Origin: Isurus oxyrinchus
Taxonomy: Eukaryota
Assembly: GCA_026770705.1 (NCBI GenBank)
Contig: JANJGN010000007.1
Span: forward strand, 109,988,001 to 110,052,000
DNA: 64,000 bases
Direction: 5' to 3'
This document shows, piece after piece, positions 1,481 through 59,409 of this stretch (the first letter of the stretch is position 1; each line of letters starts with the position of its first letter). A program made the position numbers and the translations under genes. Below the pieces are notes generated by a model, which made no database searches, was not told the origin of the DNA, and was given only the letters and a program-made list of their open reading frames with translations.

Positions 1481-1535
1481 ATGTCGATACAAGCTACAGT
1501 TCAGTACATGACTCTTCTGCGCATGGTTTGGCCAG
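1481..1535 (+). CDS. Copy A exon 1, probable leader peptide (MSIQATVQYMTLLRMVWP)
   Basis: ATG at 1481, 55 nt ending CCAG|GTACC (phase 1, matches the V exon); conserved in copy B at 45364-45418. Only moderately hydrophobic. Confidence 0.65.
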
Positions 1536-4500
1536 GTACCTTTGGTTTTTATATGCTACCGGTTTCAGAATAGCAAATCGTAATTAAATTATTCTACAAC
1601 TGTTACGCATTGTAAAATTGCATCCTGTTCCTCTCAAATTCGACTGTTGGCAATTCATAATGGATCTTATATTTTACATCTTTGCTTGTTTTTCTTTATC
1701 TATTGTATGCACTGTCTTCTTCATTTTTTTTGATAGCTGCTGGAGCAACTTCGAACAAACTGGAGCAGTTCCCTAAAGACTTGGACGTGACCAGTGGCGC
1801 GAATGTTTCCATATTCTGCAGATTTCCCATATTTCAAGGTTTTCCTGATGTTCGTTGGTGGAAACGCGACGAGGAAACCTTTCTGGAACCAGATAGCAGA
1901 AAGCGAGTTGATGTAAAAAAAGGAAGTAGTTCGTTTGACATCCTGAATGTGACTTTTACAGACTCCGGGGTGTATTATTGCAAAGTAAGGCATAGGCAAA
2001 AATTAATTGGGGACGGAACTGGCACCCAGCTCACTGTGCACGGTAGGTTTTCTTGTAAGTGGAAGGGTTACAGCTCTTGCGATACATGTCATTTGAGCTT
2101 TTTATCACTTAAGGAAAACCTGGTGATATCGAATTCCTTTTACACATCATTGGGTTTTCTTCCATTGACATCAGTGTACAACGGGCGTCTTAAATTTGAA
2201 ATTAAGCAATGGAATAATATGAACAAAAAACAGAAAATGTCGGAAATATTCAGAAGGTCAGGGAGCCTCTGTGGAGAGAAACAGTTAGCGTTTCATGTCG
2301 ATGATCATAATCGATCCGAAAAGTTAACTCCGTTTCTCTACACAGTTGTCGCCCATTCTGCTGAATATTGCCAGCATTTTCTGTTTGTATTTCAGAATTC
2401 CAGCATCTGCAGTGTGTTGCAATGGATAGGATGGTTCGTCCTATCCAAAATAACGGAGCCACAGTGCAACAATGGAAACGACTATAACACTTCCTAGGTC
2501 AAGTCATTAACACAATATTCAATATCATTTAATTCACCTCAACAGTGTCGTAATTATAAGCTCAGGTGATAACTCCCCGACTACAGCGACGAATATTTCA
2601 GTCACTTTTTCCGCCCACTGCTCGAAAGAGTCCATTTAACAATTTGGATACCGAATTATTCGAAAACTGAGATGTCTATGTTTTTGTTAGGTGTGGGTAT
2701 CAAGGGAACAGAATTAAGTCGGACAAATGGTGTTGAGGTAAAGATCAACCATAATCTAAATGAATGGCAGGGCAAGCTAGCGGTGTTGGATGGACACCCT
2801 GTTCCTATGTCCGCAGTTTATACTTTGTACTTGTGTCCACTAATAACGTGTTCGAAATACCAAACTACTTCCACAAAGTCATACTACAACCCCGTAAGAG
2901 GGGAGATGTTGATCTTGCTCTCAATGTTGGATTCCACCCCAAGTCCTAGGACTTGAAGGACAATTGAGGTGCCCAATGCCCTTATTTCAATTGGTAAACC
3001 AATTGCACTCCTTCTGATGCACTCACAACTGGTAGAGTGGAGGGAGGACAACACCAAACATTTCTATAAACGTCTGGGCTCCCGTATTTGTAATTCATAA
3101 TTTCCATGCTCACTCTCCATATGCAGGCGGAAGTTAGAGCACGAGACCAAGAGAACACTGGCTTCTTTCTCTCCAGAGGGGATTCTGTCACTTTTTGTAT
3201 TAAACCAAAAGCAGATCCATGGGGAAAGGATAGCGAAATTCTGAGGCTTTGCTGGGAGTAAAGGCTAACAACATTTTGAAAATTAACAATGCCATTAATT
3301 TAATAATTTGCTATTAGTACAATACAGTAAAAGAAAACTTGTAAAGAAGACTGACTTTAACAAACAACAAAAGATGCAACCTAATAAGGGACTTTACTTC
3401 CAGTTACCAGGTGATTACAGATAGAGCGGACAGATAGAGCGTTTCACGTCAAGAAATGGTAAATTTGGATTGTTATAAGCAGAATCTTCCCCAGAAAATG
3501 CGTTCAACGGACGGAGACAGAATGCAGTTGTAGAATGGCAAAACCCTGGTATTATATAAAACATGCACTCTGGGTTAGGATTTCCTACTCGGTTTCCGTC
3601 ATCGGTATGGATGCTGTGATCTATACAGCCATAAATAACTATCAAAATAAATTATTTCTTGGCGTCCTAAACACTCCAGCTCTCCGTCCCCCTTTGGTGA
3701 AAGATGCACGATTTGAAACCTCTACCACAGACCCTTGAAATGTTATATAATCAATGGTAACGCACGGATTCTAATCTATATCATTTTCTGGAGTCTATTT
3801 AGATACCGGAGATATTTTCATATCACACATCTTCTCAATATAAACCATTAACACAAAATATCTTCTGAAACATATGAAATATTCGAAAACGGCCATTTTT
3901 AAAATAAGCATACAACGTTTAGAACGACAACGATTTTTACAGAAAACGAGCGTCGGTCCCATGGATCGTGTAGACTGGTTTGCGCTCTCTCGTTGATAAA
4001 TTCGGACAGGAATCTCACTCGGGGTCTGTGCTGCAAACCCTAATCCCGCTCTGGTACCTGACATTTCCATTCCAGGCAGTGACACTTGTTACAAAAACAT
4101 AAAACTGCCGATGCTGGAAATCGAAAACAAAAACAGAATTACCTGGAAAAACTCAGCAGGTCTGGCAGCATCGGCGGAGAAGAAAAGAGTTGACGTTTCG
4201 AGTCCTCATGACCCTTCAGCAGAACTAGGTGAATCCAAGGAAAGGGGTGAAATATAAGCTGGTTTAAGGTGGAGGGGTGGGTTGGGTGGGGGGAGAGAAT
4301 TGGAGGGGGGTGGGTACCCCTCTCCACTTCTCTCCCCCCACCCAACACCCCCCCCCCCAAAACCCCACCTTAAACCAGCTTATATTTCACCCTTTCCTTG
4401 GATTCACCTAGTTCTGTTGAAGGGTCATGAGGACTCGAAACGTCAGCTCTTTTCTTCTCCGCCGATGCTGCCAGACCTGCTGAGTTTTTCCAAGTGACAC

Positions 4501-6827
4501 TTGTTTCTCGGTTGTTACACAGCCTGGGACATACTCCCTCTTTGTGGGTCGCTCGAAAAGACACCTGGCAAATTTGCTGTGCTCCTCATTACATTGTATA
4601 AAATAAATGCAAACACAAAGGTAAACACGTGACAGCAAGGACCACTATTCTCACAGTATGAGGTTAAGAACATATCGAGGATAGATAACCTAGAATGTGC
4701 TCCTTTAAATTCAAAAATATATTTCTTTCCTGTTAAAGTACCTCCAACACCACTGAAAATTGTTCCTGTTGAAGGGATTTCAACGACTTCTCTGAAACTC
4801 GCGTGTAAAACGGCTACCTTTTACCCGGAGGATTTAAGAGTTTCCTGGCAAAGAGATGGTGTGGAAATTCTGACCGGAATAAAAACTGTGAAAAGCGAGA
4901 CCGTGGATGGGCTCTACGAGGTTTCCAGTTCTTTGGAAGAAGCACAGCCTGTCCAGAATAGAGTCGTTTATACCTGTCTGGTATATCACGAGTCTCTTCA
5001 GGTGCCCGTCAATGTCAGCTACATCATAAATCAAGGTAAGATTGGAAACATTTATAGCAGCGAGTGGGGATGTGCTCCAACCTGTGTTTACTCATTAGAC
5101 ATGTAGCTGGGCTGCTGTTCAAACTTGAGTATACAGGGTGAATGTGGACTGTATTTACTCTCAATGTCACATTAATGGGAATGAAATAAAATAATCAAAT
5201 GGTTTGCAGCTGGAGGAGGGGGAGAATATCTCCCTGATGAGATCTGATGGAGGTTGATGTGTGAACTGCTCTAAAAACTGAAAGCTCATTCCTCGTCACA
5301 TTTTTGCCAAATGAAACGAATTTACTCATAAAATGGATCGGTTTTAGCAGTGAATTTTATCTCCCGTATATTTAAATTGAATATATGAGAATATCATTGT
5401 GCTCATCAGTTTTCTCTGGACTGTGCTTTTAGCTGTTTCACCCATAGACTCAAAAATTCCTGCTCTAAATATTTCCGCCTCTCCAACTCTCCTTTTACAC
5501 GCTCCCTGAACTCTACCTCCACCTGTCCGAATATCACTTTATGCGTCTTGTTATTGTTTGATAACGCTGCTGTGAAGTGCGTTTGGGCGTTTTGCTCCGT
5601 TACATGCAAGGTATTCTTGTTACCTACTGAAAGTTGCAGGAGGTATCCTTTGGTAAGACTGTTTATCAGTATTGAAGAGTGGAAGATTTTGCCTCTCTTT
5701 GTTTCCAATGCGCATCTGTCTGGTGTAGCACAGAAAGGTAAAAAGTGTACGTGCCTTACTCTTAACAAACAACCCTCACGTCCATGAGAAGCTTCCTGCG
5801 TCTTTATTGATTTATTCCCTCCTTAAATTGCGTTACTGGCTTTCAGTTTATACCGTTTGGAACACGTTTTAATCCTTCTGCAGCTATGCCCAATTTATGA
5901 AAGCAACCGGTCCCCACGGACATTAAACGGTTACCCAAGAGACAGCTTTACACCTCGCCCTCCTATGTCTGACACATAACTCTGTATATAAATCTCGCTG
6001 TGATCTGCGGGTTCTTGTTTCAATCTTTTCTTGATCCTGTAGGTACTGATGTCAATCTTCTGCTGACCTTTCGATGGGCAGGGGGCATATTGGCGATTTT
6101 ACTATTGATAATTATTTTGACGATACTCATTTTAAAAGCATCAACTGGTAAGAGCATTTTTTTACCTCGCCACAGTCTTTATTTTCTAAAGCCCAGTTAT
6201 ACCGTCAAAAGACATAAAGGACGGGTGAATAGTGTTTCATTATAAAGGAATAACGAGCATGTTAATGCATCTTTAGATAATGAAGTTGATACCACGAGAG
6301 CGTTATGGGATTGAGAGTTCAACATGACAATATAAACCGATTTTGGAATGCGAATATTTCATCTTCTCAATGGAACTGTTCATTCGGTTCATACACTTTC
6401 AATTTGTTACCCCCGGGATCCTTGACGTTCTGCATTTTTAAAAATATCAGTGTAGATCCAGACCTCGACGTGCAAACACTTTGAAGTGAATTTTGACTTT
6501 CTGCGAAGTGTAAAACGGGTGATATATGGAACTGGCAATCTGTTTTACATCTCTGCCTGATTAAATTTCCATTGCAATGTTACGATGTAAAATGGCTCGC
6601 CGACTCTTTGTCACATGCTTTACGCTATCCCACACAAGGCAGTGAGCTCCATTGGGTGTAGCGTATTTACGGAGTACTTCAATTTTCAAGGCTCCTTCCT
6701 TTACACAGTGAAAGCGTTTAGCTTGGAAGTCAGGTTATTGGTTTTGCTTGCACGCTCATTAAGTTATTCAATTTGGAATTCTTCTCTTCCTTTAGGCGTT
6801 AACAGAAATTCTGTGGAAGCTGATTAG
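1481..6827 (+). CDS. IgSF receptor copy A (leader-VJ-C1-TM-short tail), 264 aa spliced; SIRP/NKp30/VJC1-like, candidate activating or tail-less receptor
   Basis: Exons 1481-1535, 1737-2042, 4739-5035, 6043-6147 and 6796-6827 all have GT-AG boundaries with phase-1 introns and sum to 795 nt with no internal stop. Domain motifs are given in the exon entries. Confidence 0.85.
1737..2042 (+). CDS. Copy A V-type Ig exon with J-like G strand
   Basis: TTTTTGATAG acceptor; EQFP..VTSGANVSIFC, VRWWK, DSGVYYC, GDGTGTQLTV; donor G|GTAGG. Confidence 0.93.
2225..2420. mobile_element. Older, decayed palindromic pLTR-like element
   Basis: Inverted arms (AACAGAAAATG..AATATTCAG / CTGAATATT..CATTTTCTGTT); also present in copy B near 47505-47700. 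Confidence 0.6.
4188..4226 (-). ncRNA. Minimal hammerhead-like motif (antisense arm)
   Basis: Reverse complement is AGTT-CTGCTGA-AGGGTCATGAGGACTC-GAAACGTC-AACT. Confidence 0.6.
4410..4448 (+). ncRNA. Minimal type I hammerhead ribozyme-like motif
   Basis: AGTT-CTGTTGA-A-GGGTC(ATGAG)GACTC-GAA-ACGT-C-AGCT: stem I, core, stem II and palindromic ACGU helix III, as in PLE minimal hammerheads; the core has U in place of A6. Confidence 0.65.
4739..5035 (+). CDS. Copy A C1-type Ig exon
   Basis: VPPTP..LKLACKTATFYPEDLRVSWQRDG..DGLYEVSSSL..YTCLVYHESL (C1-set FYP, W and YxCxVxH motifs); AAG|TA acceptor, G|GTAAG donor; 297 nt. Confidence 0.93.
6043..6147 (+). CDS. Copy A transmembrane exon
   Basis: GTDVNLLLTFRWAGGILAILLLIIILTILILKAST; TAG|GT acceptor, G|GTAAG donor; Arg codon CGA at 6072-6074. 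Confidence 0.88.
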
Positions 6828-6844
6828 AGTGAAGAGTCAATGTG
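6796..6844 (+). CDS. Copy A first cytoplasmic exon, with in-frame TAG at 6825-6827
   Basis: CTTCCTTTAG acceptor; GVNRNSVEAD*; TG|GTGAG donor; 49 nt, the same length as the copy B exon 52451-52499, which has CAG at the aligned codon. Confidence 0.72.
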
Positions 6845-6944
6845 GTGAGAATGTTCTTCATATTCCAAAAAGAGGGGTTAGCGGGAAACAGCAAGAAATA
6901 TTGCAACCAACCGAGAAGAATTTAATTAAATGTCATAGGATCAT

Positions 6945-8397: not shown

Positions 8398-8511
8398 GGC
8401 AAGAAAGGCAGTACTGAGAACAACTTGGCCTATACCACTGTCCAAGCCAGCACCAGGCAAAAAAACGCAAAGCCCATTCTGCCAGAGGAGAACATGGTAC
8501 AGATGAGATAA
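8398..8511 (+). pseudogene. Possible orphaned ITIM-like module of copy A (KKGSTENNLAYTTV...)
   Basis: LAYTTV fits the ITIM consensus and its context resembles KGRGRDNKLTYATL of the terminal exon. No acceptor is visible; the upstream segment is deleted relative to copy B. Confidence 0.4.
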
Positions 8512-10470: not shown

Positions 10471-10610
10471 ATTAAAGAGGCAGGGATAACAAGCTGATTT
10501 ACGCCACTCTGCAGCTCGCTGATCCAAGAAAACATCAAAACATTAACAGTAAGACGAACACGTAGTGTACGCAGAAGTGAACATGACAAGGAAAGAGAGA
10601 AGCTGAGAAT
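10471..10610 (+). pseudogene. Decayed terminal ITIM exon of copy A (probably 3' UTR now)
   Basis: TTTCACAG acceptor; LIYATL and VVYAEV are recognisable but lie in different frames, with indels and TAA/TAG stops relative to the open copy B exon 59410-59548. Confidence 0.8.
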
Positions 10611-23190: not shown

Positions 23191-23353
23191 CGTGGTGTCA
23201 CTAATTTCTGACATATTCCTCGTCTGAGCTTCGTGAACCCACTCAATCTGAACCATCGACTGGTCATTTGCTTACTTGCATTGATTCAAATGCTTTTTTT
23301 CTATGTATACTGTCCCTGGGGATTGAACACAAGGGTGCAGATGTTTATTCTAG

Positions 23354-26300
23354 TATCTACGTTAGCTTTCTGATGGTGATTGGGGATTCCACAATCAGCC
23401 AAATACCCTGCCTTCAAGTTTCCGCTCAAACGAACAAACATCACCTGATAGGGCATCTTCCCATTCTTTCAAGAGGAGTCAGGTGTAGGGGTTCACTGGT
23501 GGAGACACGATAACCAGGAGAGCTTAGATGACGAGGAAGCGAAGAGACAATATAATCTTCCATTAAAGGGGGAGACGCCCTCTGTCTCTTGAATTCTTGA
23601 ATGTGAGATTCAAAGAATCTGTCCGCTATTACTACTATGTGTACTGCCGGGAAGGATAGTCAGGGATAGAACCGGCTCAGAGATTCTTGCGCCGGTTGAG
23701 TCGCAGGTTCGGGATGTTGCAGGAGTCAATCATGCAACAGGTACTTGGCGAAATTCCATCGAGGTAGCGAAGAGTGTGGGAATGGGACACCTGCCCAGGT
23801 TTTTGTATTTAGTGCCAGCAGCAAACCAGCCTAGAGCTAAGATTACCGATTTACGGGGAAGCTTATTTGCAAGTGTTTTTCTTTAATGTAGCCAGTTATA
23901 TATTTGTTAAAGTTTACAATTTCGTTACTGTGGAAGCATGATCCACATTCTTTTTAAAAGGTAGATGAATAAAAACGTCAATAAGGCGAACTAGATTAAT
24001 TTTTCGGGGCCAACTTAGCACACTGAGCAAATGCATTCCTACACTGCAAAGTAGTATGACTCTATAACCAAATAAACTAGGATTCGATAACCAACGAGTC
24101 CAGATTTACGAAAATTGACTAAAGAACAACAGGCGAAGGGAAGATAAATTGTTTTGCAAAGTAAGTTGCTATGATCAGGAATTTCCTGCCTGGAAGCAGC
24201 AATAGTAATTTTCAGGGGGAAATTGGATAGAAACTACAAAATAAATTCGGCGCTTTGCAGAAAGAGCTGTAGAGTGAGGTTAATTGCATTGTTCTTTCAA
24301 AGATCCAATACAGACACGATGGGCCAAATTCTCCATGACTCAGTACATGTTTCACTTTTCTTTCTCTTTTTAAGTGTCCATGTAATTTCTGGTTCATGTT
24401 CAATAATGCTTGAAGACGCAGAAGTTAAAAACGCTCCAATAAAACACCACGTTAAAGGACCTGTCCTAAAATTATGTTTTAAATTACAGGCTACAGAAAT
24501 AAAATAATAATTAATATTTCAAAATCAAAATCATTTTCTTTTCCTCCCAATTTTTTTCATTCTTCTGATTGAATCTAAATTCTAAAGCCATTTCACCAAC
24601 TCCACTGCGCAAATCAGTTGTTTTACCCTGAAGATCTCAGTGTGACTCCAGTTTAGGAACCATGCGACAATTAGAACAGGGACCAACACTCCGAAGCAAC
24701 GAACCACGGTGGGAATGTACGAGCCTTCCAGCACTTTAAGGTATACGGCATCAACCAGCAGTGGAGCTGCATACAGCTGCCAAGAGTGTCATCTTTCTCT
24801 TCAGACTCCAACATTGTCAATTAAAAATGTGAATGTAAGGTCATTTTTTTTTCAAAAACTCTTGCTCGTTTGTCGCCTCTCTTAATACAAGGGCGTTTGT
24901 GAATGCATGTTAGCATTTGGCGCTGTTGCATTCCTTTGTCACATTATGGATTTAATGCTTCAATCGCATTTTGTTATTTGTTGGCATTTATTTGAATATT
25001 TTTAAAACATACCTGTATTTGTATTAAATGCCGATTAAACGATTTGTTCTGATCCCATGTATCCCTTTGGTTTTTTTGTTGGTGTTGGTTTTATTGATAT
25101 TAACGCCTGTTGGCCTTACATCTCTGCAACTCTTTGCAGTCGCTGCTAACGTCGTTGTCGTCTCTTTGACGTTCGGCATTTAGTGGGTATGTTGGTAATA
25201 ACGGCGCTGCGTTGGAGATTATTTGAAGCTGAGGTGCTGCCAAAGGTGAGACACGCCTTTATTACCAGAACGCAGCGTCGCTTTGAAGATCAAACTTTTG
25301 CAATAAATCTGCAAAGTCGCGCTAACCGATAGGAGATGGCAATTAAGATCTTTGGTGATGGACATTTGGATAACACTTCACACGTTGAAAGCAATGAGAT
25401 ATTCTCCCGGGAAATTGCTGATGCACAGTTCCGACTATTGTTGCTCCGGACAAGCATTATCTTGCCAGAGACAACGACTTCCTCTGGAGTAGCAACGTTG
25501 GGAAGATATTTGGGGAGTTACCATGTTGTGGGGAAATGGTGGAAGCGATTATAAAAAGCCATATAAGATTGCACCAGAAAGGGCAGCCAGACGAATTTTT
25601 TCTAAGTTATCGCACGAGAGTAAAATGCCAACCGCCTCGATAACGGGCTAATGATTTGGTTTTTTACATCCTACACGGTCACCAGAATTGCCAGAGTCCT
25701 TTGCAGTCAACATTTGAAGTATGGTCAATGTTTTGATTGGGAAGCGTCACTGCAAACTTGCGCACAGCAAATCCACAAATTAGCAACGTGATTATGACCA
25801 GAAAACCCGTTTTCTTTTTGAGTGATGGAACGATTCGGTCATTGAAATTATGAAAGAGTTTGATATGGTTGATCCAAAGAAAATGTGTTCACTCGTGATG
25901 GAATCCAGAACTAGAGGGCAGAAATGGATAGCCATAAATGAATCGAATAGGTAATTCGTGAGAAGTTTCTATAGCGAGTAAGTGGTAAGAATGTGGAGCA
26001 TGCGAGAGAAACGAGTAACTGAGGAGAATAGACTACACACGTTTAAAGGGGAAGATTGATATACATATGTGGCAGGAAGATATATGCAGATTGGGATAGA
26101 AGAAGAGGAGGGAGGAGCATAAATGCCAGCAGATATCTGCTGGACCGAATAGCCTGTTTTGTGCTGTAGGCTCTATGCATTTGTATGCAATGCAGAACAG
26201 AACATGTTAGAAACACTTGATGAGAAAGATAAGTTAACGGTTCAGTCATAGCCCTTCATCAGAACTGGAAAGATGAAGAGGAAATCACAAATGACACAGA

Positions 26301-43564: not shown

Positions 43565-45597
43565 GTAAGTGGGAATAATATATGTTCTATTTCATTATCC
43601 TATACCTCACAACAAGAGAGATTTTGCACTGGCTGTTACCAAGTGACAGTGGTAAGCGCAGGTTAATTGCATGGCTAAGCGCCCCGTGGCTCTCATTAGT
43701 TCCGATGTCAGCTCACTTACATTTGTGTTTACTAAACACCTGCCGCCTTTCCTACCCTTCCTTAAGATGGAACTGTGAGGAGGAACTGAGATAATAGCTC
43801 ACGTTTTACTGATTGTAAAGAGAAAGGAGATTTCGGTGAAAGTAAAGACCTCGGGGCTTTTCCACAATTTTTGGCGGTGTTACAGCGAATGAGGAGGCTG
43901 TTAAAAATGGAGGGGATACTTCACTTTATTGATGAAGACACAGGGTACAGTAAGGAAATTATTTTAAACTTTTATAAAGCACCATATCAGCCTCAGCTGG
44001 AAAGTTTTCTTCAAATCTGAAAACTGTCAGGGACTTGGAGAGGGTGGAGAAAAGATTTGCTGAAGGTTCGCCTGGTTTAAGGGTCTTGGGTTATGTGGAG
44101 AGACTGGAGAAGCTACAGTTGTTCTCCTTAGAGTCGAGAAGTTTAAGAGAAGGCTTGATAGCGACTTTCAAAGTTATGAACAGTTTTGATTAAGGAAATT
44201 AGGAGAGACTGTTCCCAGTGACACAAGAGTCGGTAACAAGAAGATAGAGATTTAAAGTGATTGGTAAAAGAAACCGAGGCATCTAACATTTGGCTGGAAG
44301 TTAGTTGCGGTGTAGCCCCATCCTGTTGTTGCCATCGGTTCGTACAGCTTAAATGGACGGCGGTGATGAGCAGAAATCCTGACTGATTTTTGCCTCCTGC
44401 TTTAGATAAGCTAACTCGGCACACAGCGGATTTGGAAACAGGAACCTGCAACAGGCTGAATGCAGTGAATAACCAGTCTTACTTTCATTGATATCTCTTT
44501 TCTCTTTGCAACCAGCTTGCTTTAGTTAGTCCAAATGCAAGTTTCACCCAGCACACCGCGAAAATTCCTTCCGAAGAATAATTATATTCGACTGGAAATT
44601 TTACTTCGGTTTCTATCTCTATAGATACTGCTGGACCTGCTGATTTTTCCAGGACTTTCTGCCTTTATTTCAGATCGTCAGTATCCCCAGTATTTTGCTT
44701 TTATTATTCGCGAATATTCCTTATTGCATTTCAGGCCTGCTGGACTAATAACTGTAACATTGAAAGATGTATATGTAGGACCAACATTTCATCTCTGGTA
44801 TGGTGAAGGTAAAATTGGACTCAACAGCTCTGGAATGAAAAAAAGGACAATGAGCATGATTATTAATCTAAATTGCTGTTGCAGTGAGCTGTTACTATTC
44901 CGGTGAGTGGAGACTGGTTGGGGTCTCGATCTAAATATATAAATAACTAAATATTTGCACAATCACATTGTCCATGCTCCTACATGAAGTCGAATGCCTT
45001 CGGTGAAGTGCTGGAGGACTGTCTGCGCCTCCGGCCTTCATCTTTAGTTTCAGGATGGAGTGAAGTATCAAAGGTAGGTGTTGACAAAGAAGGTGATTGG
45101 AACGAAGTGCCCCGGAAGCGGCTGAGAAAACATTGCCCTTCACGTGAAGGCTTTTCAGCCGGCAGTTAGGGGGGGTGATCATCAACTTCCCAGACGCCAC
45201 CACGGTAGAATAAACAGACTCAATACTCTGCTTTAGTCATGTGATCTCTCATGTCGAGGTCATACGTTCCACACATTTATCTATGAAATCAAGTTCTTAC
45301 CCAAGCCACTGGGGATATCATTCTCACTTACAGCAATTTGGCAACTAACTTTTTATTTGCAACATGTCAATGCAAGCTACAGTTCAGTACATGACTCTTC
45401 TGCGCATGGTTTGGCCAGGTACCTTTGGTTTTTATATGCTGCCGGTTTCAGAACAGCAAATCTTAATTTAAATTATTCTACAACTGTTACCATTGTAAAA
45501 TTGGATGCTGTTCCTCTCTAATTCGACTGCTGGCAGTTTCATAATGGATCTTATATTTTACTTCTCTTGCTAGATTTTCGTTATCTATTGTATGCAC

Positions 45598-46582
45598 ATG
45601 ATAGGGTCCCCCTTGTCCTCACTTATCATCCCACCAGCCTCCGCATTCAAAGGGTCATCCTCCGCTTTTTCCGCCAACTCCAGCATGACGCTACCGCCAA
45701 ACACATCTTCCCTTCAACCCACCCCCGCAGCGGCGGCATTCCGTAGGGATCGTTCCCTCTGGGACATCTTGGTCCACTCCTCCATCACCCTCGACTCCTC
45801 AACCCCCACCTATGGCACCGCCCCATGCCCACACAAAACATGCAACACCTGCCCCTTCACTTCCTCTCTCCTCACAGTCCAAGGGCCCAAAGACTCATTT
45901 CAAGTGAAGCTGCATTTCACTTGCATTTCCCCTAACTTAGTCTACTGCATTCGTTGCTCCCAATTCAGTCTCCGCTACATTGGAGAGACCAAATGTAAAC
46001 TGGGCGACCGCTTTGCAGAACACATGCGGTCTGTCCACAAGAAAGATCCAAACCTCCCTGTCGCTTGCCATTTTAACACTCCACCCTGCTCTCTTGCCCA
46101 CATGTCTCTCTTTGGCTTGTTGCATTGTTCCAGTGAAGCCCAACGCAAACTGGAGGAACAGCACCTCATCTTCCGACCAGGCACTTTACAGCCTTCCGGA
46201 CTGAATATTGAATTCAACAACTTTAGATCGGGAACTCCCTCCTACATCCCCACCCCCTTTCCGTTTCTTCCCCCTTCATTTTGTTTTTTTCCAATAATTT
46301 CTATAGATTTTTCTTTTCCCACCTATTTCCATTATTTTTAAATTTTTCATGCCCTGTTAGTCTTTCCACCCCAACCCCACTAGAGCTGTACCTTGAGTGT
46401 CCTGCCATCCATTCTTATTTAGCACATTCGTTTAGATAATATCACCACTTTCAACACCTCTTTGTTCTTTTGTCTGTGACATCTTTTGATTATCCGCCCC
46501 TATCACAGCTTGCTTGTCCCTACAACCACACCGCACCGCCCCCCCACTTCTCTCCCACCACAACCCCCACCCCCCCCCCCTC

Positions 46583-46613
<31 letters not shown>

Positions 46614-46734
46614 TAAACCAGCTTATTTCACCCCTCTCCTAATATTCACTCACTTCTGTTGAAGGGTCATGAGGACTCTTTCTTTCTCCGCCGATGCTGC
46701 CAGACCTGCTGAGTTTTTCCAGGTAATTCTGTTT
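45598..46734 (+). mobile_element. Penelope-like element (GIY-YIG) in copy B intron 1
   Basis: ORF 45592-46341 has the GIY-YIG motifs; TSD TTGTATGCAC at 45588-45597 and 46735-46744; empty site near 1703. Confidence 0.9.
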
Positions 46735-46938
46735 TTGTATGCACTGTCTTGTTCATTTTCTTTTATAGCCGCCGGAGCAACTTCGAACAAACTGGAGCAG
46801 TTCCCTAAATACTTGGAGGTGCCCAGTGGCGCGAATGTTTCCATATTCTGCAGATTTCCCATATTTCAAGGTCTTCCAGATGTTCGTTGGTGGAGATGAG
46901 GTGAGGAAATCTTTCTGGAACCAGACAACAGAAAGCGA

Positions 46939-47168
46939 TAAAAAACAAAAAAAAACTACGGATGCTGGAAATCCAAAACAAAAACAGAATTACCTGGAAA
47001 AACTCAGCAGGTCTGGCAGCATCGGCGGAGAAGAAGAGAGTTGACGTTTCGAGTTCTCATGACCCTTCGACAGTTCTGTCGAAGGGTCATGAGGTCTCGA
47101 AACGTCAACTCTTCTTCTCCGCCGATGCTGCCAGACCTGCTGAGTTTTTCCAGGTAATTCTGTTTTTG
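46939..47168. mobile_element. Palindromic pLTR/hammerhead mini-element inserted in the copy B V exon
   Basis: Arms meet at about 47072; TSD CAAYAGAAAGCGA at 46926-46938 and 47169-47181. Confidence 0.9.
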
Positions 47169-50100
47169 CAATAGAAAGCGAGTTGATGTAAAAAAAAAAG
47201 GAAGTAGTTCGTTTGACATCCTGAATGTGACTTTTACAGACTCCGGGGTGTATTATTGCAAAGTAAAGCATAGGCAAAAATTAATCGGAGACGGAACTGA
47301 CACCCAGCTCACTGTGCACGGTAGGTGTTCTTGTAAGTGGGAGGGTTACAGCTCTTTGCGATACATGTCATTTGAGCTTTTTATCACTTAAGGAAAACCT
47401 GGTGATATCGAATTCCTTTTACACATCATTGGGTTTTCTTCCATTGCCATCGGTGTACAACGGGCGTCTTAAATTTGAAATTAAGCAATGGAATAATATG
47501 AACAAAAAACAGAAAATGTCGGAAATATTCAGAAGGTCAGGGAGCCTTTGTGGAGAGAAACAGAGTTAGTGTTTCATGTCGACGATCATAATCGATCCGA
47601 AAAGTTAACTCCGTTTCTCTACACAGTTGTCGCCCATTCTGCTGAATATTTCCAGCATTTTCTGTTTGTATTTCAGATTTCCAGCATCTGCAGTGTGTTG
47701 CAATGGGATAGGATGGTTCGTCCTAACCAAAATAACGGAGCCACAGTGCAGCAATGGAAACGACTATAACGCTTCCTAGATCAAGTCATTTACACAATAT
47801 TCAATATCATTTAATTCACCTCAACAGTGTCTTACTTATTAGCTCAGATGATAACTCCCCGACTACAGTGACGAATATTTCATCTACCAGTCACCTTTTC
47901 CGCCCACTGCTCGAAAGAGCCCATTTAACAATCTAGTTACCGAATTATCCGAAAACTGAGATGTCTATGTTTTTGCTAGGTGTGGGTATCAGGGGAATAG
48001 AATTAAATCGGACAAATGGTGTTGAGGTAGAGATCAACCATAATCTAAGTGAATGGCAGGGCAAGCTAGCGGCGTTGGATGGACACCCTGTTCCTATGTC
48101 CGCAGTTTATACTTTGAACTTGTGTCCACTAATAACTTGTTCGAAATACCAAACTCCTTCCACAAAGTCATACTACAACCCCGTAAGAGGGGAGATGTTG
48201 ATTGTGCCCTCAATGCTAGATTCCACCCCAAGTCCTAGGACTTGCAGGACAATTAAAGGGCCAATGCCCTTATTTGAATCTCTGGGGTACACCAATTGCA
48301 TTCCTTCTGATGCACTCACAACTGGTAAAGTGGAGGCAGGACAACACCAAACATTTCTATAAAGGTCTGGGCTCCCCTATTTGTAATTCATAATTTCCAT
48401 GATCACTGTCTATAAACAGACAGAAGTTAGAGCACGAGAACAAGAAAACACTGGCTTCCTACTCCCCAGCGGGGATTCTGTCACTTTTTGTATTAAACCA
48501 AAAGCAGATCCATGGGGAAAGAATGGCGAAATTCTGAGGCTTTGCTGGGAATAAAGGCTAACAACATTTTGAAAGTTAATAAGGCCATTAATTTAATAAT
48601 TTACTATTAGTACAATACAGGAAAAGAAAACTTGTAAAGAAGACTGACTTTAACAAAAAACAAAAGATGCAACCTAATAGGAGACTTTACTTCCAGTTAT
48701 CAGGTGATTGCAGATAGAGCGGACAGATAGAGCGGTTCACATCAAAACATGGTAAATTTGGGCTGTTATAAGCAGAATCTTCCCCAAACAAAATGCGTTC
48801 AACGGACGGAGACTGAATGCAGTTGTAGAATGGTAAAACCCTGGAATTATATAAAACATGCATCCTGGGTTAGGATTTCCTATTCGGTTTCCGTCATCGC
48901 TTTGGATGTTGAGATCTATACAGCCATAAATAACTATCAAAATACTAAACACTCCAGCTCTCCGTCTCCCTCTGGAGAAAGACCCTTTGGTGAAAGATGC
49001 ACGATTTGAAACCTCTACCACAGACCCTGAAATGTTATATAATCAATGGTAACGCACGGATTCTAATCTATATCATTTTCTGGAATCTATTTAGATACCG
49101 GAGATATTTTCATATCACACATCTTCTCAATATAAACCATTAACACAAAATATCTTCTGAAACATGTGAAATATTCGAAAACGGCCATTTTTAAAATAAG
49201 CACACAACGTTTAGAACGACAACGATTTTTACAGAAAACGAGCGTCGGTCCCATTGTTCGTGTAGACTGGTTTGCGCTCTCTCGTTGATAAATTCGGACA
49301 GGAATCTCACTCGAGGTCTGTGCTGCAAACCCTAATCCCGCTCTGGTACCTGACATTTCCATTCCGGGCAGTGACACTTGTTTCCTGGTTGTTACCCTGC
49401 CTGGGACATAATCCCTCTTTGTGGGTCGCTCGAAAAGACACCTGGCAAATTTGCTGTGCTCCTCATAACATTGTATAAAATAAATGTAAACAGGCGACAG
49501 CAAGGATCACTATTCTCACAGTATGAGGTTAAGAACATATCGAGGATAGACAACTGAGAATGTGTTCCTTTAAATTCAAAAATATATTTCTTTCCTGTTA
49601 AAGTACCTCCAACACCACTGAAAATCGTTCCTGTTGAAGGGATTTCAACGACTTCTCATGAAACTCGAGTGTAAAACGGCTGCCTTTTACCCGGAGGATT
49701 TAAGAGTTTCCTGGCAAAGAGATGGTGTGGAAATTCTGACCGGAATAAAAGCTGTGAAAAGCGAGACCGTGGATGGGCTCCACGAGGTCTCCAGTTCTTT
49801 GGAAGAAGCACAGCCTGTCCGGAATAGAGTCGTTTATACCTGTCTGGTATATCACGAGTCTCTTCAGGTGCCCGCCAATGTCAGCTACATCATAAATCAA
49901 GGTAAGATTGGAAACATTTATAGTAGCGAGTGGGGATGTGCTCCAACCTGTGTTTACTCATTAGACATGTAGCTGGGCTGCTGTTCAAACTCGAGTATAC
50001 AGGGTGAATGTGGACTGTATTTACTCTCAATGTCACATTAATGGGAATGAAATAAAATAATCAAATGGTTTGTAGCTGGAGGAGGGGGAGAATATTTCCC

Positions 50101-51375
50101 TGAAGAGAACTGATGGAGGTTGATGTGTGACCTGCTCTAAAAACTGAAAGCTCATTCCTCGTCACGTTTTTGTCAAATGAAACGAATTTACTCATAAAAT
50201 GGATCGGTTTTAGCAGAGTCACTTTTATCTCCCGTATATTTAAATTGAATATATGAGAATATCATTGTGCTCATCAGTTTTCTCTGCACTGCGCTTTTAG
50301 CTATTTCACCCATAGACTCAAAAATTCCTGCTCTAAATATTTCCGCCTCTCCATCTCTCCTTTTACACGCTCCCTGAACTCTACCTCCACCTGTCTGAAT
50401 ATCACTTTATGCGGCTTGATTTTTTGTTTGATAACGCTGTTGTCAAGTGCGTTTGGGCGTTTTCCTCCGTTACATACAAGATATTCTTGTTACCTACTGA
50501 AAATTGCAGTAGGTATCCTTTGGTAAGACTCAGTGCTGACGAGCGGAAGATTTTGCCACTCTTTGCAGCCAATGCGCATCTGTCTGGTGTAGCACAGAAA
50601 GGTAAAAAGTGTACGTGCCTTACTCTTAAAAACACCCCTCACTTCCAGAGAAAAGCTTCCTTATAGATTTATTTCCTCCATGGCTTTATGGCTTGATGTT
50701 AATGTCCTTTTGGACACATTATAATCCTTGTATAGCTATTGCCGATAGAAATAAAAGTGGTCGGTTCTCAGAGTAAATGGATACCTTTACCCGAGAGATA
50801 CTTTTGCACCTGACCTATGACTCTGTATATAAATCTCGCTGTGTCCTACAGGTTCTTATTTAAATCATTGTTGATCCTATAGGTACACGTCAAAGTTCCG
50901 CTCATTTTTGGATGTGCTGACGGCATATTGCCAATTTTACTGTTGATAATTATTTCGACGAGAGTCAAATTAAAAGCATCAGCTGGTAAGAACATTTTAT
51001 ATTTCGCCGCTTACTTCTATTTTCGAAGGTCCAGTTATACTGTCAAGACATAAAGCGCAGGTGAATAGTGATTCATTATAGAGGAATAACGAGCGCTTTA
51101 CTGCATCTTTAAAGAATGAACTTGATATCACAAGAGCGTTATATAATTGAGAGTTGAATATGGCAATGTAAACCGGTTTTGAAATGCAAATATTTCATCT
51201 TTCCAATAAAATTATTCATTCGATTTATGCACTTCCAATTTGCTACAACCGGAATCCTTAACGTTCTGCATTTTTAAAAATATCAGTACGGGTCTAGACC
51301 TTGAAGTGTAAACACTTCGAAGTAGAGCTCGACTTTCTGTGACAATGTGAAACGGGTGACATGGAACTGGTAGTC

Positions 51376-52195
51376 ATACAAACAAGGAGCAGGAGTAGGC
51401 CATTCAGCCCCTCGAGCCTGTTCCGCCATTTAATAAAATCATGGCTGATCTGATAGTAGCCTGTAATCTGCATCCCACCTACCGACAATAATGTATAACC
51501 CCGTTGCTAACCAACAATCTTTCCACCTCTGCCTTAAAAATATTCAAAGACTCTGCTTCCACCACCTTTTCAGGAAGAGAGTTCCAAAGACTCAGGACTC
51601 TCTGGGTGAAAAAAAATCGCCTCATCACTGTTCTAAACGGGCAACCACTTATTTTTAAACAGTGCCCCCTAGTTATAGATTCTTCCACAAGAGGAAACAT
51701 CCTCTTCCACATCCCCCCTGTCAAGACCCCTCAGGATCTTATATGTTTCAATCAAGTCACCTCTTACTCTTCTAAATTCCAGCAGATATAAGCCTAGTCT
51801 GTCCAATCTTATCTCATAAAACAACCCGCCCATTCCAGGCATTAGTCTGGTAAACCTTCTCTGAACTGCTTCCAATGTATTTAAATCCTTCCTTAAATAC
51901 GATACCAATACTATTGGCAGTACTCCACATGTGGTCTCATTAATGCCCTGTACAGCTGAAGCATAACCTCCTTACTTTTGCATTCAATTCCCTTCACAAT
52001 AAATGATAACATTCTATTAGTGTTCCTAATTACTTGCTGTACTTGCATACTAGCCTTTTGTGATTCATGCACTAGGACACCCGGATCCCTCTGCACCTCA
52101 GAGCTCTGCAGTCTTTCATCATTTAGATAATGTGCTTCTCTTTTATTCTTCCTGCCAAAATTGACAATTTCACATTTTCCTACATTAAACTCATC
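51376..52195 (-). mobile_element. CR1 3' fragment specific to copy B
   Basis: LYRALMRPHVEYC and RRFTRLMPG on -; absent at the aligned site near 6538. Confidence 0.87.
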
Positions 52196-52654
52196 TGTTT
52201 TACATCTCTGCCAGATTTTATTTCCATTGAACTTTTGCAATGTAAAATGGCTTGCTGACTGTCTATCACAGGGTTTTGCACAATCCCACAAAAAGCAGTG
52301 TGCTCCATTGGGTGTAGCATTACCAGAGTATTTCAATTTTCAAGGCTCCTTCCTTTACATGATAAAAGTGTTTAGCTTGGAAAGCATGTTGTTGATTTTG
52401 CTTGCACACTCATCAAGTTATTGAAGTTGGATTTCTTCTCTTTCCTTTAGACGTTAAGAGAAATTCTGTGGAAGCTGGCCAGAATGAAGAGGCAGTAGAG
52501 TGACAATGTTCTTTATATTTCAAAAAGGGGGATTAGGGAGGAATAGCAAGAAATATTGATATTTTGATTAATTTACTTAATTAAATTTCATAGAATCATG
52601 GAAATGAAGTTATTGTGCCTGTGCCACTTCTGTGAAACAATTATCCAATTAAAG

Positions 52655-52950
52655 TCATAGAGTCATAGAGGTCTACAGCGCAGATAAAGGCCCTTCGGCC
52701 CATCGAGTCCACACCAGTCAAACAAGTACCTAACTATTCTAATCCCATTTTCCATCACTAGGCTATAGCCTTGTATGTCATAGCATTGCAAGTGCACATC
52801 CAAATACTTCTTAAATGTTTTGAGGGTTTCTGTCTCTACCACCCTTTCAGGCAGTGAGTTCCAGATTCCCACCACTCTCTGGATGAAAAACTTCTTCCCC
52901 ACATTCCTTCTAAGCCGCCTGCCCCTTACCTTAAATCTATGCCCCTGGTT
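52655..52950 (-). mobile_element. CR1 3' tail fragment
   Basis: (CATAGAGT)n end; FFIQRVVGIWNSLP on -. Confidence 0.8.
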
Positions 52951-53832
52951 ATTGAATCTGCTTCCTCCAGCCTTTCTGGAAATGCTTTCCAGACCACAAT
53001 AGCTGGCTGCATAAAAAAACCTCCCTTCCCTTGATGATCCTAAGTTGTTGCCCCTTGGATACAATCCAACCACCATTGATAGCACATTGTCCTTACTTAA
53101 GCTTGTCAAAATCTCTCAATTTTGAGCACCTATTATATCTACTTTATCTTCCCCTGCTCTCGGGTGAACAATCATAGATTCTCTAGTCTCCCCAACATAA
53201 CCAAAGTCCTTCATCTCTGGTATCAATCTAGTAAATCTCCTCTGCAAATGTTCCCAAGTCTTTTATCCTTCAAAAGTGTAATGCCCAGAATAGGACACAA
53301 TATACCAAAGGGGCCTAACTAGTGATTTAAGATGTTTTAGCATAAATTCCTTCTTTTTTGCACTATGCCATTATTTATAAGGCCAAGTTAAATATTTGTG
53401 TTTATTGTAACACATATTTCTGATGGATACCCTTTCAAAATTCAAATTATTCCAAAATAGGAGGTTCCTAGATGTTCAGTTGCTTAACTGACACATGTTG
53501 CAGCATAACCAGATAGAGTAGGAAGCTGCCCAGTGCCAAGAGTTAAAAGGAAAGAACAATAGTGCAGGGTAAAGATATGGGTGATGATAACCATAGTGTG
53601 ACAGCATGGGACAGAGCATACAAACATAAGAGTTCAGCAACAAATAGGGTCAGAGAAGGGAAAATAGTAAAAAGACAATTAATGGCTGCACCTGGATGCA
53701 GACAGCACTCTTTATAAGATAAATTAATTGATGGTACAAATATATAGGTGGGAAAGCAAGTTCTGAGCAGAGTTGCAAAGGAATATAGATTGGTTGAATG
53801 GGCAAAAATCTGGCAGATGGAGTATAATGTGA

Positions 53833-55028
53833 AACAAAAACAGAATTACCTGGAAAAACTCAGCAGGTCTGGCAGCATCGGCGGAGAAGAAAAGAGTTGA
53901 TGTTTCGAGTCCTCATGACCTTCGACAGAACTTGAGTTCGAGTCCAAGAAAGAGTTGAAATATAAGCTGGTTTAAGGTGTGTGGGGGGTGCGGAGAGAGA
54001 GAGAGAGAGAGAAGTGGAGGGGGTTGGTGTGGTTGTAGGGACAAACAAGCAGTGATAGAAGCAGATCATCAAAAGATGTCACCAACAATAGAACAAAAGA
54101 ACATATAGGTGTTAAAGTTGGTGATATTATCTAAACGAATGTGCTAATTAAGAATGGATGGTAGGGCACTCAAGGTATAGCTCTAGTGGCGGTGGGGGAG
54201 AGCATAAAAAATTGAAAAATATTTAAAAAATAATGGAAATAGGTGGGAAAAGGAAAATCTATATAATTTATTGGAAAAAAAACAAAAGGAAGGGGGAAAC
54301 AGAAAGGGGGTGGGGATGGGGGAGGGAGATCAAGACCTAAAGTTGTTGAATCAGTATTCAGTCCGGAAGGCTGTCAAGTGCCTAGTCGGAAGATGAGGTT
54401 TTGTTCCTCCAGTTTGCGTTGGGCTTCACTGGAACAATGCAGCAAGCCAAGGACAGACATGTGGGCAAGAGAGTAGGGTGGAGTGTTAAAATGGCAAGCG
54501 ACAAGGAGGTTTGGGTCATTCTTGCGGACAGACCGCAGGTGTTCTGCAAAGCGGTCGCCCAGTTTACATTTGGTCTCTCCAATGTAGAGGAGACCACATT
54601 AGGAGCAACGAATGCAGTAGACTAAGTTGGGGGAAATGCAAGTGAAATGCTGCTTCACTTGAAAGGAGTGTTTGGGCCCTAGGACGGTGAGGAGAGGGGA
54701 AGTGAAGGAGCAGGTATTGCATCTTTTGTGTGGGCATGGGGAGGTGCCATAGGAGGCGGTTGAGGAGTAGGGGGTGATGGAGGAGTGGACCAGGGTGTCC
54801 CGGAGGGAGCGGTCCCTACGGAACGCTGATAGGGGGCATGAAGGGAAGATGTGTTTGGTGGTGGCATCATGCTGGAGTTGGCGGAAATGGCGGAGGATGA
54901 TCCTTTGAATGCAGAGGCTGGTGGGGTGATAAGTGAGGACAAGGGGGACTCTATCATGTTTCTGGGAGGGAGGAGAAGGCATGAGGGCGGATGCACGGGA
55001 GATGGGCCGGACACGGTTGAGGGCCCGG
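53833..55028 (-). mobile_element. Penelope-like element with pLTR/hammerhead motif (53895-53932)
   Basis: GIY-YIG ORF pieces on -; CTGTCGA..GAAAC core. Confidence 0.88.
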
Positions 55029-56001
55029 TTAGCCTCTTTAGTAGGAAGAATAATAAGTAGAATATTATTTAAATTGAGTGAGACTACAGAATATTGTGTT
55101 AGAGAGGAATTTCTTCCTTCCTTTTGGAGGGTGGGTAGACAGGAAAGTGGCTGAGGCCACAATCAGATCAACCATGATCTTATCGAATGGTAGAGCAGGC
55201 TCAAAAGGCCAACTCCTGAATCTTGTTGTTAATCTTCGGAACTTTGTACTCAGAAACAGTGGAGACTGGGTCATTGAATAGATTTGATCCTGAGTTAGAC
55301 AAATTTTTCCATCTCCGAAGGTGTCAAGGGTTATGTGGGGGAGGCAGGCTGATGGGAAAGTGGAGCTAAGGCCACTATCAGATCAGCCATGAACTTACTG
55401 AATGGCAGAGCATGCTCAATGGGTCAAATGGCCTACTTCTACTCCTATTCCTTATGTTATGTGCTTTTACCCCCACCTCTAATGTCTTAGCTGATCCAGG
55501 TTGGCTGCAGGTACCTTAATTGTCCTGCATCCCTCAGTTAGGCAATAGGATTGGAGATTCCTACCTAGGGCTACAAGTGTCTGGAAGTAGAAAGAGGCCA
55601 AATTCAGGCTTCACTGGGTCTTCCAATAGGCTGGGCTGGCGGAAGAGTAAGAAGATGGTCGACACACGCCACAGCAAGCGCAAACACTTTTGAGTAGAGA
55701 GCCAGAGATAATTGAGGAAGAAGGGAGGGAAATTAGCAATATGTATTATTCATAGGGTAGATATTAGCCGTGCTCCAAATCATCTTGATTTTAAATGTAA
55801 ATAATTTGAGCACCTGAAATTTCATATTTAGAACATTACCAACCAGCGATAAAATGATTGAGAGTAGACAGAATGTAATTGTGTCCTAATGTTATCAATT
55901 ACAGTCTGCATATTTACATTATCAGACTCAGTTCAAATTGATGAACGGTGGCTGTAGTATTCGGTTCTCCGCTATCAGTATTCAATACATTATTTTCGCA
56001 G

Positions 56002-56115
56002 GTTGGACAAGGACGACGTCACGATATTGTTGCCTACGCTAGTCTAAACTTGAGACACGACAATGGACCCTCCAAACATAGACAGGAGAAAGAGCACACC
56101 GTCTATTCCCAGGTA
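56002..56115 (+). pseudogene. Copy B cytoplasmic exon with ITIM VAYASL and ITSM-like TVYSQ(V)
   Basis: TTTTCGCAG acceptor; Tyr codons at 56035 and 56104 (23 codons apart). The phase does not match the flanking exons, so the boundaries or an indel are uncertain. Confidence 0.7.
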
Positions 56116-56989
56116 GGAAGGCGGGATTGGGACGAATAATATCCAAACTATTCCCGTACAAGATCATAACTCTGTGAAAACAGTCAATATTGATAAACTG
56201 TACAGAATCTACGGGGATAGTTTTGACTTTGTGGGATAAAATAAAATAGCAATCAGAAGATTGTAAAAAGAGCTGCGAACTCCTTATCATCCGCGTTTTC
56301 TTTGCCCTAAACTACAAAATACCAAATAGGAAACTCGCCTCTCAAGAGCACTAAGTGCGTGTTTTACAGAACAGCCCTACCGAAGCCAGGAACAGGACAA
56401 ATGGGAAACCTATACAGGCAGAGAAGAGTGTGGTATTTTTTCAGGAACAGCACAATCATTCATTGAAACCCCATCAGTGTTAAGTGGCACATCAACGAAC
56501 TGCAGGAAACGAGAAGGACCCAGGTTTAAACCAGCTGGTTGTGTCGGTTGACTTCAGCCAATATTTGCCTCGTGTCCCAGAGATCGGCGGGGGTGGGGAA
56601 AAGGTGGCTGAAAATTATGACCTTAACCTTAAGACAGTGCTTTGCAATATTAGCATTCCAAATACTCTTAACAGATAGTATTAAATTATTTTACCTGCTA
56701 TTTTAATTGAAGTATTAACCCTTAAGTGGGTTACAATAGCATGGGAACTCATTTTATACGAAGATTTCAACCGGAATATAAATATATATGCTAGCAGGCG
56801 GCAGGTGTAATTTTAAAAAGTGTGAGGGATGCATTTTGGCAGAAGGGATAGGGAGAAGCAACAAAGACTCAACGGTAGTTCTAAAGGCAGGACATAATAG
56901 TTTCAGGGAAATAGTTTTAAACCTTTATAAAGCTCTGGTTAGGCCAGAGAGTATTGCACTTAGTTCTGGTCACCACACATTAAGATGGG

Positions 56990-58878: not shown

Positions 58879-59409
58879 TCAGAGGGTGTAGAGGAAATGT
58901 ACCAGAACGGTTGCAAGCATGGGGAATTTTAGGTACAAGATGATGAACTTGGATAAACTGGGGTTATCCTTGGAGCAAATGAGACTCAGGAAATGTGACA
59001 GATGTACAAGATGACAACAGATTTAGAAAAGGTAGACAAAGAAAAACTGTTTCCATTAGCTGATGGTACAAGGGCAAGGTTTTGGGCAAGGGATGCATGG
59101 GATGGGAGGAAAATCTTTTCAGTGTGTGGTAATGACCATCAGTGATTTGAAAAAGGAAATTAGATGGGTACTTCCAAGTTAATTTCCTTCCAGGGTTACA
59201 GTGATAGAGTAGAGCAATGGAACTGATGGATTCGTTCCAGAGAGCGCCTTCAGCCTCAATGGGCCTTACACCCTCCTAAGCTGCTAAATGATTCTAAAGT
59301 GAAGTTGACAATTGAGAGAAAATTCCATTACAACCTTTTTATAAACCCAGATTGCCACAAGCAGAGTTGACAATGGACTAACAGGTGATATTAAATTTTA
59401 CTTTCACAG

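Follow-up and report, generated by a model that had tools for sequence, protein, structure and literature searches.

A germline-encoded VJ-C1 receptor gene of Isurus oxyrinchus, likely an activating partner in a large and apparently unnamed family of paired receptors of cartilaginous fish

A germline-encoded, non-rearranging receptor gene, which joins a variable-joining (VJ) immunoglobulin (Ig) domain to one C1-set Ig domain and a transmembrane (TM) segment, was analysed in a 64,000-nucleotide stretch of the 4.98 Gb genome of Isurus oxyrinchus (assembly GCA_026770705.1, contig JANJGN010000007.1, hereafter C7, positions 109,988,001-110,052,000; the whole stretch is referred to as the window). 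The family to which this focal gene belongs is a real, ancient, large, and apparently unnamed paired-receptor system, in which members with inhibitory motifs of the immunoreceptor tyrosine-based kind (ITIMs) stand opposite members with an arginine in the TM segment. The focal gene itself is regarded, with modest confidence, as a likely activating partner that was derived from a brake-type gene.

The leader, VJ, C1, and TM exons of the focal gene (Table 1) are each of phase 1 and bounded by AG/GT splice sites. The V exon frame is open and was matched by the Pfam V-set (E=8e-10) and I-set (6.8e-10) profiles; the C1 exon is also open, and its C1-set match (E=2e-11) lies above the cut-off. No site resembling a recombination signal sequence (RSS) was detected in positions 1501-2400 of the window using a loose scan. 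With a stricter scan, an RSS-like site was located within 200 nt of the V exon at 1 of 30 family loci, compared with 8 of 8 Ig- or T-cell receptor (TCR)-type control loci, for which longer stretches were scanned. The initial annotation, which had described a V domain with a J-like GxGTxLTV strand in a single exon, a single true C1-set exon, a TM segment, and a V exon free of flanking RSS, is thus borne out on each of these points; the leader and TM exons lie beyond the coordinates that it gave.

The size of the family was assessed by genome-wide exon searches. The V exon search, in which 150 of 160 candidates were scored, returned 52 matches, every one on C7 (19 at 96.4-97.6 Mb, 32 at 108.6-110.04 Mb, and 1 at 114.8 Mb), and 14 of these contain stops. 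The C1 exon search returned 91 matches, 58 of them on C7, including the best 53. Sixty stretches were fetched and 35 C1-bearing loci were examined, and TM classes were assigned by eye: 21 loci carry a neutral TM segment, 11 carry an Arg near its top, and no TM exon was found at 3. Tyrosine-motif exons follow 17 of the 21 neutral-TM loci and 0 of 9 older Arg-type loci (Fisher p=5e-5, computed on paralogs that are not independent and with only ~6 kb fetched for two of the nine Arg loci), and at the two Arg loci of the focal lineage they are present solely as decayed relics. The arrangement by which paired Ig-like receptors are recognised, a gene cluster whose ectodomains are alike and whose TM/tail modules oppose one another, is thus present here. 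The multigene VJ-C1 family with signalling tails proposed by the initial annotation stands as far as the family is concerned; the focal copy's own tyrosine-motif tail is broken.

Both TM classes are also present in database proteins of other sharks. A profile search recovered 37 proteins, of which 34 were named and came from 15 cartilaginous species, including Callorhinchus; two others carried an incomplete name and were taken as Callorhinchus from adjacent accession numbers, and one was unnamed. Every close homolog that carries a name comes from a cartilaginous fish (shark, ray, or chimaera), and the hits within a single species are on contigs of one and the same length (e.g. 6/6 in Heterodontus and 3/3 in S. 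canicula). The family is taken to predate the shark-chimaera split. No bony-vertebrate homolog was returned by the profile search, a weak negative given that the search depends on shared words. A single C1 exon lies between V and TM at the focal gene and at the mapped loci; two C1 domains are seen in a small number of database models (P0171, P0023). A further subfamily, found in sharks and rays, has a neutral TM segment and a cysteine-rich juxtamembrane tail in which no tyrosine motif was found (C7 109,636,361 and 114,794,930; P0172 and P0030), and it may have a different role.

The departure of the focal gene from the ITIM type lies in its TM and tail exons. The TM codon that encodes Gly in ITIM-type paralogs encodes Arg, and the following codon encodes Trp instead of the Cys of most of those paralogs. 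The first cytoplasmic exon contains an in-frame TAG that terminates the protein at 264 aa, leaving a cytoplasmic tail of ~14 residues with no tyrosine motif. Downstream, the last ITIM exon has a 4-nt deletion at its start, a 1-nt frameshift, and two stops in the ancestral frame, and no match was obtained in the focal gene to the third tyrosine exon known from ITIM-type paralogs. The stop is common to the focal gene and to copies at C7 109.83 Mb and 109.94 Mb (TAG and TAA); the TM Arg is shared with the 109.83 Mb copy, and in the 109.94 Mb copy the greater part of the TM exon is absent. Both changes, Gly-to-Arg and stop, are old, because the flanking introns of these three copies differ by ~11-12% (305/2583 and 256/2240 sites). 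A contig from a second DNA data set (X1), which may or may not represent another individual, spans positions 5793-7000 with 18 differences (1.5%); one of them falls in the TM exon, and the Arg and stop codons show no difference. An assembly error as the source of the stop was rejected, since the stop is common to paralogs and is unchanged in the X1 contig.

To judge from its sequence, the TM segment of the focal gene derives from the neutral type, unlike the older Arg-type TM exons, several of which end in an acidic residue plus His and which occur on different V subfamilies both here and in other sharks. Activating-type modules therefore appear to have arisen at least twice in the family.

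The focal gene is a mosaic with a switch of identity near position 5600. Up to ~5600 it is mostly 93-98% identical to neighbour copy 2, an ITIM-type pseudogene in the same window (range 86-98%; all values in 300-nt windows), and beyond that point the identity is 64-86%; from 5600 on, identity to the Arg/stop copies is mostly 85-91%. Taken by halves, the 5' part of the gene stands at 93-97% to neighbour copy 2 and the 3' part at 86-91% to the Arg/stop lineage. The transfer may have run in either direction. In KLRC, KLRI, Ly49, and PIR pairs, homogenisation is confined to the ligand-binding part (PMC3210942), and by analogy the mosaic pattern of the focal gene is as would be expected of homogenised opposing receptors. 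Neighbour copy 2 carries a stop and an insertion in its V exon and frameshifts in its C1 and TM exons.

Table 1. Features of the focal gene and of related copies in the window (positions counted from the first nucleotide of the window).
Feature	Positions	Strand	Evidence or remark
Leader exon	1481..1535	+	ATG, phase-1 GT donor; tblastn with shark homologs, translation
Single VJ exon, encoding a V-type Ig domain whose J-like strand reads GxGTxLTV	1737..2042	+	Pfam, AlphaFold2, RSS scans
C1-set exon	4739..5035	+	Pfam PF07654 E=2e-11, splice sites
TM exon	6043..6147	+	Arg codon 6072-6074 replaces Gly of ITIM-type paralogs
First cytoplasmic exon with in-frame TAG at 6825-6827	6796..6844	+	CAG or CAC in ITIM-type paralogs
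Decayed middle tyrosine-motif exon	8401..8510 (approximate boundaries)	+	Matches paralog exons
Decayed last ITIM exon	10472..10606	+	Comparison with paralogs
Third copy, from another subfamily; V and C1 remnant in an advanced state of decay	23339..25555	+	DNA 65-70% identical to the C7 copies at 109.73 and 109.78 Mb
Neighbour copy 2, ITIM-type pseudogene	45364..59545	+	Tyrosine exons near 56002 and 59411

Repeats were also noted in the window. In the V-C1 intron of the focal gene, positions 4130-4506 form an inverted repeat of two head-to-head repeat copies (117-nt arms, 93% complementary) with no counterpart at that place in neighbour copy 2. A repeat of the same family is inserted at 46945-47170, splitting the V exon of neighbour copy 2, and a retroelement fragment with a zf-RVT match below the cut-off lies at 42724-43422 on the minus strand.

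The working model for the family is one of opposing signals. In ITIM-type members the V domain would bind ligand, the C1 stalk would hold it off the membrane, and SHP-type phosphatases would be recruited, as read from the tail motifs. In the focal copy, the upper-TM Arg may pair with aspartates of an FcR-gamma/zeta-type adaptor, leading to activation, and swapping of the leader-V-C1 block with a neighbour of the ITIM type would leave the two partners directed at an identical or similar ligand. PIR, LILR, and KLR proteins are built from C2-type Ig or lectin domains and differ in this from the VJ plus C1 of the shark family, which by analogy may work like SIRP, PIR, and LILR pairs. PIR/LILR/KLR-type pairs share with this family the contrast of Arg-TM, short-tailed members and ITIM members and a homogenised ligand-binding part (PMC3210942). 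The focal copy is read as likely activating because of known Arg-TM receptors: CD89 is coupled to FcR-gamma by an Arg close to the N-terminus of its TM segment, the upper-TM Arg of NKp30 and NKp46 is assumed to couple to zeta/gamma dimers (PMC13107469), and in PIR-A and KLRI2, both of them activating partners, the TM segment has an Arg and ITIMs are missing (PMC3210942).

Several observations weigh against an activating role. No transcript of the focal gene was seen in RNA look-ups that were uninformative (no RNA source was listed for the V exon, contigs of four presumed-RNA runs cover only repeats in 1400-2400, and two gave nothing on 4600-7000). Both Arg/stop sisters are broken, one having no V match and the other stops and no TM exon, and so is the ITIM-type partner, neighbour copy 2, in this assembly. 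In the focal leader, an Arg replaces the Gly of database homologs; the TM Arg, placed at the margin of the hydrophobic stretch, could be located on the surface of the membrane; and one locus counted in the neutral class carries a mid-TM Arg. Premature stops upstream of later exon junctions expose a transcript to nonsense-mediated decay, which could occur here if the decayed exons are still spliced in. On the focal branch, 6 synonymous and 10 replacement changes (7 in V) were counted, which is not clearly distinguishable from neutral change.

The chief alternative, a real possibility that we rate well below the activating reading, is that the focal copy is silent or decaying, or is a decoy unable to signal, the open frame of its ectodomain being due to chance or to recent overwriting from its neighbour. 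The pseudogene state of neighbours and sisters agrees with this, as do the stops in 14 of 52 V matches, the counts of branch changes, and pairwise nonsynonymous to synonymous rate ratios (dN/dS) of 0.4-0.9 with paralogs for V and C1; on the branch of neighbour copy 2, 1 synonymous and 7 replacement changes were counted, with 2 sites not polarisable. It sits less well with the confinement of every frame lesion of the focal gene to the tail exons. Neutral survival of the open leader-V-C1 and TM frames and splice sites was simulated at 0.068 x 0.44 = 0.03, using half of the pairwise intron rates, which also speaks against a silent copy; the figure is post hoc, the copy having been chosen as intact-looking among ~50, and to that extent it lends less to the activating reading. 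The Arg and stop are moreover unchanged in the X1 data, and an Arg with a short tail is the recurring second class of the family. A function for the focal gene is accordingly no more than favoured, on sequence grounds.

The chromosomal setting of the family was examined next to that of SIRP. Exons of NUDT21/CPSF5 (E=1e-39), AMFR (E=4e-12), and BBS2 (Pfam) lie within 200 kb to the right of the window, genes that we take to map to human 16q12-13, and no further family exon was found in these 200 kb. In 200 kb of the other cluster flanks no Ig exon was found, and inspection by eye, made without a Pfam scan, revealed no nameable gene. SIRP genes adjoin NSFL1C on human chromosome 20 and in tetrapods. 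Genes with a SEP domain were found on contigs C12 and C5, and the C12 exon matches p47 at E=1e-17, in a comparison made with p47 alone; no Ig exon lies in the 200 kb around it. Matches to RB_A occur on C7, C12, and C18, and triple fn2 repeats are confined to C7 and C12; these markers presumably represent RBL2/RBL1 and MMP2/MMP9. Because C7 and C12 share these duplicated genes, C7 is likely a paralog of the NSFL1C chromosome, on the modest evidence of two chromosome-level markers. Opioid-precursor matches were located on C5 only, which leaves PDYN unplaced.

We tentatively consider, at odds well below those for the activating reading, that the family and the SIRP cluster are sisters by whole-genome duplication (ohnologs), descended from a VJ-C1-ITIM ancestor that existed before the second vertebrate duplication and off the proto-major histocompatibility complex (MHC). 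Cartilaginous fish would have kept and expanded the copy beside NUDT21-AMFR-BBS2, and bony vertebrates would have kept the copy beside NSFL1C. Activating members would have arisen at least twice, the focal gene representing a later switch by Gly-to-Arg and stop changes, which would have been followed by ectodomain exchange with an inhibitory neighbour.

It is unlikely that the family is the SIRP cluster's true ortholog in sharks, relocated to a different chromosome and with one C1 domain instead of two. SIRP proteins have two C1 domains and form a tandem cluster of inhibitory members with tyrosine motifs and short-tailed members with a charged TM segment. The family shares with them the joined VJ plus C1-set domains, the type I TM layout, the tandem cluster, the multiple tyrosine motifs, and the paired inhibitory and charged-TM forms; many of its members were automatically named SIRP-alpha-like by NCBI, and SIRP-alpha clusters are among the language-model neighbours of one full-length homolog (0.95-0.96), which serves as a lead only. 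With the V-C1 profile, the SIRP-alpha ectodomain (58.5 bits) scored just over light chains (~55) and B7H6 (53), and no SIRP-like V was found elsewhere in the genome among 150 of 273 candidates scored. Against orthology, a SIRP-like V domain of lungfish had no C7 match at E<=0.001 in the same search, so that the family V is not recognised by this query, and the lungfish V profile gave family V exons at most 28 bits compared with 38 for Ig light-chain (IgL) and NCR3-like V exons. The trees, which contain one SIRP-like protein, do not join the family to SIRP-like V, and the NSFL1C-like gene on C12 has no Ig exon beside it. The family further differs from SIRP in its single C1, its NUDT21-AMFR-BBS2 neighbourhood, its ~50 copies, and its upper-TM Arg, activating SIRP-beta having a central Lys and signalling through DAP12. 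SIRP is listed among joined-VJ members of the Ig superfamily (PMC11599192). One lungfish protein (P0101, 'protein turtle-like') contains six SIRP-like V repeats, one of which matches mammalian SIRP-alpha at E=6e-15.

That the family is a relative of Ig, TCR, or UrIg chains is very unlikely. The VJ-C1-TM order is the layout of an Ig/TCR chain, the top Foldseek ranks were TCR and VNAR domains, UrIg2 was the best V-C1-containing match in PDB, and many neutral TM segments start with a Cys able to form dimers. The fold matches to TCR and VNAR are tied, however, with NCAM and titin domains. Structure prediction, which the initial annotation had proposed as a means of placing the gene, confirmed an Ig fold for the V domain (pLDDT, the model's per-residue confidence score, of 91.9); the fold matches were generic and singled out no kin. 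Neither SIRP nor NKp30 appeared among the fold matches listed, which excludes neither. Scores of the V-C1 profile against PDB were 81.7 bits for UrIg2, in which three C1 domains add up, 58.5 for SIRP-alpha, ~55 for light chains, 53.4 for SIRP-gamma, and 53 for B7H6, and they point to no clear nearest kin. When V or C1 was searched singly against PDB sequences, multi-domain proteins crowded the results, and long multi-Ig proteins dominated the representative search.

Phylogeny had also been proposed at the outset. In the V tree the family forms one side of a branch with support of 97/96 (59 rows), and of 92/93 (52 rows) in a second tree from which 8 family rows were dropped and to which one gene from contig C18 was added, apart from Ig, TCR, and UrIg-like rows; deep forks are open in both. 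In the C1 tree the family is likewise one side of a branch (80/87, 48 rows). The trees hold few outgroups, and the C1 tree was built without a true SIRP, tapasin, B7H6, or TCR C domain. An aromatic residue before GxG and a WYQQ-type C strand are features of the V-V pairing interface of Ig and TCR chains. Among 24 family V exons, the residue before GxG is Asn in 19 (17 of them in a glycosylation sequon) and aromatic in none, and the WYQQ pattern occurs in 0/24; because that residue is never aromatic, V-to-V pairing as in Ig/TCR chains is likely not to be expected of this family. The possibility of an Ig or TCR gene, rearranging or germline-joined, was rejected, the J strand lying within the V exon, RSS-like sites being found near 1 of 30 family V exons, and the family standing outside the Ig/TCR group in both the V and C1 trees.

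Linkage gave the same picture. MHC class I matches were located on C21 (31/33) and C16, and Ig/TCR-type V and C exons, which we labelled by motif, on C26, C16, C13, C2, C49, and others in a survey that scored 150 of 3319 V-set candidates. The family on C7 is therefore off the MHC contig and off the sampled Ig/TCR contigs, and the synteny with MHC that had been considered in the initial annotation was not found. Together with the separation in the trees and the absence of aromatic residues (0/24), this also leaves unsupported a special closeness to the pre-RAG antigen-receptor ancestor, which the initial annotation had raised for VJ-C1 genes of this kind. One MHC class I match, at C21 66.13 Mb, lies within an open frame of 845 aa, a long way from the main class I cluster, and possibly represents a single-exon or processed gene.

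Other genes of similar layout were compared. PRARP and amphibian VJC1 genes have a VJ-C1-TM layout without rearrangement, which the family shares. PRARP has been cited as a VJ gene of the MHC (PMC10751288), and the family cluster is off the MHC contig. UrIg and UrIg2 resemble the family in having a non-rearranging VJ followed by C1 in elasmobranchs (PMC12227049); they differ in having several C1 domains, Fc-like dimers, and linkage to MHC or an antigen-receptor complex, whereas the family has one C1, ITIM or Arg signalling, and a different contig. NKp30 (NCR3) is like the family in its single-exon VJ and upper-TM Arg and differs in being MHC-linked and without a C1 domain; V exons on C21, which we take to be NCR3-like by motif, group apart from the family in the trees. 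On C18 near 78.22 Mb (L128:3383-5607), a C1 exon follows another, distinct VJ exon, which does not rearrange and has an FG loop rich in proline. This gene falls outside the family in the V and C1 trees, with its C1 beside the Ig group (82/90), and may be a better candidate for a PRARP/VJC1-type gene. Further single-exon VJ genes were noted at C12 40.65 Mb (L139:1366-1752) and C11 161.43 Mb (L135:984-1814), with no C1 match in the fetched stretches, and genes with several C1-like exons at C10 39.6-39.76 Mb (L122, L123) form their own clade in the C1 tree.

Expanded B7H6-like or tapasin-like ligands, as opposed to receptors, would account for some NCBI automatic names and for the B7H6 score with the V-C1 profile, and are the least probable identity, given that GxG followed by Ser or Thr occurs in 28/30 V exons (B7-type V domains being without a J motif), that ITIM and Arg-TM classes are receptor traits, and that the insulin/IGF2-like cluster, which we take as a proxy marker of the B7H6 chromosome (human 11p15), lies on C10.

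Outside sharks, the representative search gave the V domains of reptile tandem-VJ receptors as the nearest. A turtle V had 15 of 19 matches on C7, with the best there, and a C21 V exon scored nearly as high; orthology was not accepted, as the C21 score is nearly equal and the tree position shifts between V trees. These receptors, which occur in turtles, lizards, and snakes, bear either tails with tyrosine motifs or a TM segment with an Arg (P0050, P0072, P0119, P0139, P0166, P0182), are automatically named titin-like, NCAM2, or pIgR-like, and look like another unnamed paired family.

The shark family is thus not assignable to SIRP, Ig/TCR, UrIg, PRARP, or B7H6, PRARP being set apart by description only. 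Its members carry inconsistent automatic NCBI names (SIRP-alpha-like, NCR3LG1-like, tapasin-related-like, IgL-like). As the initial annotation supposed, it may be uncharacterised: no description of the cluster was found in the literature searched, and key VJ-gene papers or their supplements may list members. In one file of the elephant-shark genome supplement (PMC3964593), no SIRP, B7H6, ITIM, or non-rearranging entry was found.

To our knowledge, large paired families of the KIR, LILR, or SIRP type are poorly known in cartilaginous fish, and a candidate paired family of ~50 genes provides targets for the study of self/non-self sensing in shark leukocytes. VJ-C1 genes serve for tracing the origins of antigen receptors, and the known VJ-C1 relics have been placed in the MHC or an antigen-receptor complex (PMC10751288, PMC12227049). 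If a large VJ-C1 family does reside outside those regions, on a likely paralog of the SIRP chromosome, this layout would already have been in use for innate paired receptors, and would by itself be no sign of closeness to the gene that was invaded by RAG.

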